Positions 55,334 to 56,570 of a stretch of DNA of 64,000 nucleotides are shown one piece after another. Origin of the DNA: Escherichia coli (lineage in GTDB: Bacteria; Pseudomonadota; Gammaproteobacteria; Enterobacterales; Enterobacteriaceae); the NCBI RefSeq assembly GCF_030013595.1, contig NZ_CP122768.1. One strand, 5' to 3'. The first letter of the stretch is position 1; each line of letters opens with the position of its first letter. The notes under the pieces are model-generated. The model was not told where the DNA came from. It saw nothing but the letters and a program-made list of their open reading frames with translations, and did no database searches. The translations under genes and the position numbers were made by a program.

Positions 55334-56570
55334 ATGGAATTTACCACCGGATTGATGTCGCTCGACACCGCGCTTAATGAGATGCTTTCTCGCGTCACCC
55401 CACTGACCGCCCAGGAAACGCTGCCACTGGTACAGTGTTTTGGTCGTATTCTGGCGAGCGATGTCGTTTCGCCGCTTGATGTTCCGGGGTTTGATAACTC
55501 CGCAATGGACGGCTACGCGGTGCGTTTAGCCGATATTGCCTCCGGGCAACCGCTGCCCGTTGCCGGTAAATCCTTTGCCGGTCAGCCGTACCATGGTGAA
55601 TGGCCTGCGGGTACCTGCATTCGTATTATGACCGGTGCGCCGGTGCCAGAAGGCTGCGAAGCGGTGGTCATGCAGGAACAGACTGAACAAACGGACAATG
55701 GCGTGCGTTTTACTGCTGAAGTGCGTAGCGGGCAAAATATTCGCCGTCGCGGTGAAGATATCTCTGCGGATGCGGTTGTTTTCCCGGCGGGAACACGCCT
55801 GACTACCGCAGAGCTGCCAGTAATTGCTTCACTGGGGATTGCCGAAGTTCCGGTGATTCGTAAAGTGCGTGTAGCGCTGTTTTCTACCGGTGATGAACTC
55901 CAGTTGCCAGGCCAGCCGCTGGGCGACGGCCAAATCTACGATACCAACCGTCTCGCCGTACACCTGATGTTAGAACAGCTGGGATGCGAGGTAATCAACT
56001 TAGGGATTATCCGCGACGATCCCCATGCCCTGCGCGCCGCTTTTATTGAAGCCGACAGCCAGGCGGATGTGGTGATCAGTTCCGGCGGTGTTTCAGTGGG
56101 TGAAGCGGATTACACCAAAACCATTCTTGAAGAGCTGGGGGAGATCGCCTTCTGGAAGCTGGCGATTAAACCAGGTAAAACCGTTCGCGTTCGGAAAACT
56201 TTCTAATAGCTGGTTCTGCGGCCTGCCGGGCAACCCGGTTTCAGCGACGCTGACCTTCTATCAACTGGTACAGCCTTTGCTGGCAAAACTAAGCGGCAAT
56301 ACCGCCAGCGGCCTGCCCGCGCGCCAGCGTGTGCGCACGGCATCGCCTCTGAAGAAATCGCCAGGACGCCTTGATTTCCAGCGCGGCGTGCTGCAACGCA
56401 ACGCCGATGGCGAACTGGAAGTGACGACCACCGGACATCAGGGTTCACATATATTTAGCTCCTTTAGCCTCGGTAACTGCTTTATCGTGCTGGAGCGCGA
56501 TCGCGGCAATGTTGAAGCGGGCGAATGGGTGGAAGTAGAACCGTTTAACGCGTTGTTCGGAGGCCTGTAA
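55334..56570 (+). pseudogene. moeA: moeA (molybdopterin molybdotransferase) with a +1 frameshift in the A-run at about 56177-56180; track ORFs 55334..56206 and 56088..56570 are its two halves
   Basis: ORF1 ends ...[21 protein letters not shown]2 in the +1 frame continues ...[25 protein letters not shown]... to the MoeA C-terminus; removing one A from ggtAAAAccg restores [13 protein letters not shown], matching remembered MoeA. Confidence 0.75.

Follow-up and report, generated by a model that had tools for sequence, protein, structure and literature searches.

Loss-of-function alleles of moeA (chlE) have been familiar since the era of Escherichia coli chlorate-resistance genetics, and the phenotypes that accompany the loss of molybdoenzymes, including chlorate resistance, belong to the general physiology of this species. 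Both frameshifted pseudogenes private to single strains at the tips of clones and isolated homopolymer errors are common. The MoeA protein itself puts molybdenum into molybdopterin once MogA has adenylated the pterin (PMC7759655). In assemblies built from nanopore reads only, the residual errors are substitutions at methylation motifs and errors of homopolymer length (PMC6591954; PMC11170131), the published miscalls being, for R9 data, A>G at the W of CCWGG and, for R10.4.1 reads, G to A or A to G at GATC.

Here we describe a moeA locus of E. coli that is interrupted by one additional base. The window, that is, the whole stretch of 64,000 nucleotides that was analysed (contig NZ_CP122768.1), carries AAAA at positions 56177-56180, where reading of the sequence and alignment showed AAA in every comparator. 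The text around the A-run and the resulting stop is ...attaaaccaggtAAAAccgttcgcgttcggaaaactttcTAAtag..., and the features of the locus are as follows.

55334 to 56570, plus strand: the whole moeA locus, with a broken reading frame.
55334 to 56206, plus strand: the 5′ fragment of moeA, native residues 1-282, then TVRVRKTF out of frame and a stop (from the ORF list and its translation).
56177 to 56180, plus strand: the AAAA run, a 1-nt insertion spanned by codon 282 (Lys); AAA in all relatives (from the alignments).
56204 to 56206, plus strand: the premature TAA in the shifted frame (from the sequence and the ORF list).
56181 to 56570, plus strand: the 3′ remainder of moeA, residues 283-411, in the +1 frame; it holds the end of MoCF_biosynth and the whole of MoeA_C, with no further mutation.
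56570 to 57319, plus strand: intact moeB, whose ATG and the normal stop of moeA overlap (TAATG), with GGAGG 8 nt upstream.

The broken ORF comprises 290 codons from the ATG at 55334, of which 282 are native and 8 aberrant, and the ORF list shows that the remainder of MoeA can be read in the +1 frame as far as 56570. The locus as written thus contains no uninterrupted complete MoeA reading frame and is a moeA pseudogene. A preliminary description of this DNA had placed a +1 frameshift in moeA at 56170-56210, and the sequence, coordinates, quoted peptide and direction of the shift that it gave all proved correct when compared with the sequence and the ORF list; the comparators, all with AAA, likewise bear out its statement that the lesion is a single A added to a run of three. 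Its further claim, that deletion of one A returns a full-length protein of 411 amino acids, was confirmed, since removal of one A yields an ORF of 1236 nt whose product is identical to the MoeA of strain SC418 and differs by 1 amino acid from that of HCP5S3_I2 and by 5 from that of K-12. (The substitution F273V, at L001 24150 in moeA codon 273, is private to HCP5S3_I2.) The gene was also correctly named: the domain architecture of the repaired protein in Pfam is MoeA_N (PF03453, residues 8-168), MoCF_biosynth (PF00994, 182-317) and MoeA_C (PF03454, 332-404), residues 1-411 of that protein align to residues 1-411 of the solved E. coli MoeA (1FC5/1G8L, E=1.4e-273), and the annotated syntenic regions of HCP5S3_I2, SC418 and K-12 place the gene in a moeA-moeB operon adjoining iaaA-gsiABCD. 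On the repaired protein, the break after Lys282 falls inside the MoCF_biosynth domain.

We consider it probable, though by no means certain, that this is a genuine and very recent slippage mutation, private to the strain, that abolishes the synthesis of the molybdenum cofactor (Moco); both the presence of the extra base in the DNA and the phenotype are what we infer. Slippage during replication would have added one A to the AAA run at Lys282, so that translation would stop after 290 residues. The predicted product would keep domains I and II but lose approximately the last quarter to third of the molybdopterin-binding domain III and all of domain IV, and it is predicted to be incapable of transferring molybdenum to adenylated molybdopterin. 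Moco should consequently be absent, the nitrate, TMAO and DMSO reductases and the formate dehydrogenases inactive, and the strain resistant to chlorate. The frameshift would also end upstream translation 364 nt before moeB, so that the normal stop/start coupling would be lost; judging from the sequence, moeB retains a GGAGG of its own, and any polarity would strike the same pathway.

The allele is private to one assembly. The gene itself is present at a coverage of at least 80% in 5,424 of 5,426 complete E. coli genomes, yet an 81-nt query across the site, which aligned in 4,122 genomes, reached 100% in none of them, the best match being 80/81 with a single gap. A 32-mer centred on AAAA, which could seed a megablast match only where the insertion is present, found none in the 5,426 complete genomes, and 28-mers containing the AAAA allele were likewise absent from all 5,426. 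The run is AAA in K-12, SC418, HCP5S3_I2, three metagenome contigs and seven further draft assemblies. Pattern scans for AAAA in GTDB representative genomes and JGI metagenomes returned 0 matches and are uninformative, since a control with the wild-type sequence yielded no more than 0 and 3. An exact look-up of the truncated MoeA of 290 amino acids was negative in a collection of 15 billion proteins, a weak result in that NCBI lists no protein for pseudogenes and Logan apparently lacks the strain. Literature searches turned up no specific report of a naturally occurring moeA pseudogene, or of a moeA frameshift selected by chlorate, in E. coli isolates. That moeA is nearly universal counts against a genuine mutation, since a null allele should be disfavoured in the gut.

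This uniqueness is also what would be seen if AAA had been over-called as AAAA in the consensus, for example from incompletely polished long reads, and if the moeA of the strain were normal, a reading already raised in the preliminary description, which we regard as credible but clearly less probable. The nearest relatives are two almost identical clone-mates, the assemblies L015 (GCA_049544575.1) and L016 (GCA_036246625.1). Across 21.7 kb (L015) and 16.0 kb (L016) they differ from the window only at 49517 and at the moeA A; both carry GsiA Y538S, and both encode an intact MoeA of 411 amino acids with AAA, which also counts against a genuine mutation. The difference at 49517 is a synonymous G>A change in a Dcm site of gsiD. 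The run is likewise AAA in three more relatives (L010, L012 and L014), which show, besides the gap in moeA, 3-6 substitution positions relative to the window over 14.9 kb. The two point differences that find no counterpart elsewhere, 49517 (Dcm-site G>A) and 56177 (homopolymer +1), belong to the classes of residual error documented for assemblies from nanopore reads only, namely C>T/G>A at methylated motifs and homopolymer length (PMC6591954; PMC11170131), which speaks against a genuine mutation. On the other hand, 49517 is uncorroborated only because it is synonymous and hence beyond the reach of a protein look-up, and the published motif errors (A>G in CCWGG; G to A or A to G at GATC) are unlike the insertion of an A.

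The closest complete genome is that of HCP5S3_I2 (pig, UK), which is 99.9% identical. It has 13 private SNPs relative to the window, 7 of them missense and 1 synonymous, at coordinates that include the L002 31419-region; three intergenic ones are clustered upstream of bssR (window 42470-42539).

The reliability of the surrounding sequence was assessed by aligning the whole window to HCP5S3_I2 and polarising the differences with SC418 and K-12. Derived on the lineage of the window were 14 SNPs and two +1 homopolymer insertions, the A3 to A4 change in moeA and an intergenic T6 to T7 change at 18888. The coding effects of these SNPs (potI W11*, ybjL Q379*, nine missense and two synonymous changes) looked unselected. 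Because five of the 14 SNPs fall on methylated bases and because homopolymer insertions were present, an assembly from nanopore reads only was suspected. The five, at 22038, 22300, 32059, 46287 and 49517, lie on Dcm- or Dam-methylated base pairs (P=8e-7); three are C>T/G>A changes at Dcm 5-methylcytosine and two are transversions at the Dam A:T of GATC, which may be due to chance (P=0.007). Dcm 5-methylcytosine is a classical deamination hotspot, and the occurrence of the Dcm-site amber codons in other assemblies shows that they arose by real deamination of 5-methylcytosine and not by basecalling errors. At least four of the five methylated-site SNPs were found in other assemblies.

The same was true of the protein changes. 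The nine missense changes lie in eight proteins, and exact-protein look-ups placed each of the eight in further public assemblies: YbiW H773Y in 140 blocks of the protein collection, ArtQ A119T, PotF G75S and DgcI I26N/Y92H on approximately 70 contigs each, GsiA Y538S on 6 contigs, and YbjT R430H, RcdA A145T and DacC K126N on 2 contigs each, one of 5.58 Mb and one draft. In the DNA around PotF, the T7 run, potI W11* and the changes at 22038, 25400, 30919 and 17754 are common to the clade relatives, of which L022 is 100% identical to the window across 13,181 bp. The T7 run itself (18882-18888, in the artM-artJ intergenic region) is T6 in HCP5S3_I2, SC418 and K-12; its presence in all clade relatives marks it as a true polymorphism of the clade, not an error.

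Across the whole window, only the moeA +A, the synonymous SNP at 49517 and an IS10 in nfsA were without a match in another assembly, and the moeA +A is the sole unshared indel in approximately 62 kb. Homopolymer runs in this stretch number 2,256 at 3 nt, 594 at 4 nt, 295 at 5 nt or more and 71 at 6 nt or more. All 295 runs of at least 5 nt agree with the relatives, and of the 276 Dcm-methylated base positions, two to each CCWGG motif, a single one departs from them. The many unshared motif substitutions and long-homopolymer indels by which a generally error-prone, nanopore-type assembly would be recognised were not found, and such an assembly was rejected as unlikely, because the protein look-ups and the DNA of the clade relatives showed the changes to be real and shared. 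Short k-mers shared between SNPs (ATCGTAC twice, GCCTC twice) were also considered as a sign of context errors and set aside, the sharing being not significant by a rough estimate; three of these four SNPs were verified as real and the fourth (intergenic, 30919) is common to the clade relatives.

For the lesion in moeA these results weigh in favour of a genuine mutation. All the differences open to checking turned out to be real, and errors of the sequencing platform would be expected in long runs first, whereas the single unshared indel lies in a 3-nt run, the least error-prone class of homopolymer, and no second one occurs despite the 295 longer runs. The branch leading to the strain also carries real and largely unpurged changes (YbjT R430H, RcdA A145T, DacC K126N and nfsA::IS10), a pattern with which one fresh pseudogene agrees. 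Some of the observations are nonetheless compatible with an over-called base. A complete IS10 in unique sequence and the matching contig of 5.58 Mb suggest a long-read assembly, and the strain-level alleles have no Logan listing, so that public short reads may not exist. Similarly, moeA has no secondary mutation in its dead part, the repaired protein being identical to that of SC418, and this means that the lesion is either very recent or not real: it fits a very young lesion, and an otherwise perfect gene is also what an artefact would leave.

Several other genes in the window are disrupted or accessory. The nfsA gene is interrupted by IS10 at 27919-29247, with a clean 9-bp target duplication, CACCGAGCA, at 27910-27918 and 29248-29256. 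Among the relatives, nfsA is intact in L018-L020, deleted in HCP5S3_I2 and situated at a contig end in L022; an IS10 in nfsA is found in nine complete E. coli genomes, two of which (O111:H11, bovine) have the same junction. Interruption or deletion in several genomes indicates that loss of nfsA is recurrent; the gene encodes a nitroreductase, and its loss is the first step to nitrofuran resistance.

Two of the derived SNPs create amber codons at Dcm sites, in each case by CCAGG to CTAGG. The first, W11* in potI (a putrescine ABC permease; TGG to TAG at codon 11, 22299-22301, minus strand), occurs in all clade relatives that were read, where the gene is called as an N-truncated product of 268/269 amino acids or as a pseudogene, with no potI call in L019. 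The second, Q379* in ybjL (aspartate:alanine antiporter family; CAG to TAG, 32059-32061), leaves a YbjL of 378 amino acids that was found exactly on 34 independently assembled Logan contigs, indicating a real sub-clade pseudogene; the site is C (CAG) in all five of L018-L022, and ybjL is called at 561 amino acids in L018, L019 and L021. Two insertions relative to K-12 were also observed: a RelE/ParE toxin and HTH antitoxin pair between rimO and dgcI (approximately 44260-44965), and an ORF of 600 amino acids with pentapeptide repeats between ybjQ and ybjP (12769-14571), which is interrupted by IS1 in HCP5S3_I2.

The insertion could also be real without being a simple knockout, either because a tRNA-Lys slipping by +1 on A-AAA-A makes it leaky or because slipped-strand changes of the run act as a Moco switch, for instance under chlorate; we find this scarcely plausible. 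The sequence would allow it in so far as a tRNA-Lys on AAA could re-pair perfectly one base downstream on AAAA, AGGU lies immediately upstream of the run, and loss of one A should suffice for reversion. However, none of the relatives carries the shift, which argues against a conserved recoding site: AAAA occurs in 0 of 5,426 genomes and the relatives have AAA in frame, so that the conservation of a prfB-like programmed +1 site is lacking. The next codon is ACC, a common codon, and the sequence does not suggest a pause. A run of 3 or 4 nt is, moreover, far shorter than the tracts of known contingency loci; it is invariably AAA across the 4,122 genomes aligned with the 81-mer, and in place of the long variable tract of a phase-variable locus the comparators uniformly have 3 nt and the window 4. 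It is also very improbable that the insertion is real and adaptive, providing a readily reversible one-base switch that shuts down Moco synthesis and with it the reduction of chlorate to toxic chlorite, and which, together with the repeated loss of nfsA, would point to selection by oxidants or nitro compounds, and not to random decay, in a lineage with relatives from livestock. Taken as a whole, anything more exotic than a mutation or a consensus error has only a very small probability.

A recent, strain-private knockout of moeA would have practical consequences. If the insertion is real, the strain is predicted to be without molybdoenzymes and hence to be chlorate-resistant and incapable of nitrate, TMAO or DMSO respiration; having no formate dehydrogenases, it would produce no formate-hydrogenlyase gas, and it is predicted to be sensitive to N-hydroxylated base analogues. 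These properties would matter for any work on anaerobic physiology or gut colonisation with this strain, and clone tips in E. coli would have supplied a further case of transient deleterious polymorphism. As an artefact, the extra base would illustrate that one homopolymer error can fake a pseudogene in an otherwise accurate assembly. The moeA +A is biologically ordinary in either case, and it leaves what is known of MoeA and Moco biosynthesis unchanged.

Three described systems may be set beside this locus. The classical chlE/moeA null mutants of E. coli, which are chlorate-resistant and pleiotropically deficient in molybdoenzymes, concern the same gene and the same expected consequence, but the allele of the window stands in the genome of a non-K-12 isolate, apparently without laboratory selection on chlorate, and its phenotype is a predicted one. 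Errors of long-read-only assemblies likewise take the form of a homopolymer +1 that produces an apparent frameshift in an otherwise perfect conserved gene, whereas the approximately 62 kb of the window lack the companion errors that would be expected. The strain-private slippage pseudogenes of E. coli and Shigella resemble the moeA lesion in that a mononucleotide run has gained 1 nt and the gene shows no other decay, and further lineage-specific inactivations (potI W11*, ybjL Q379* and nfsA::IS10) lie near moeA in the window; in contrast to the moeA lesion, which has been seen once, the neighbouring lesions in potI and ybjL occur in other assemblies and are thereby proven real.
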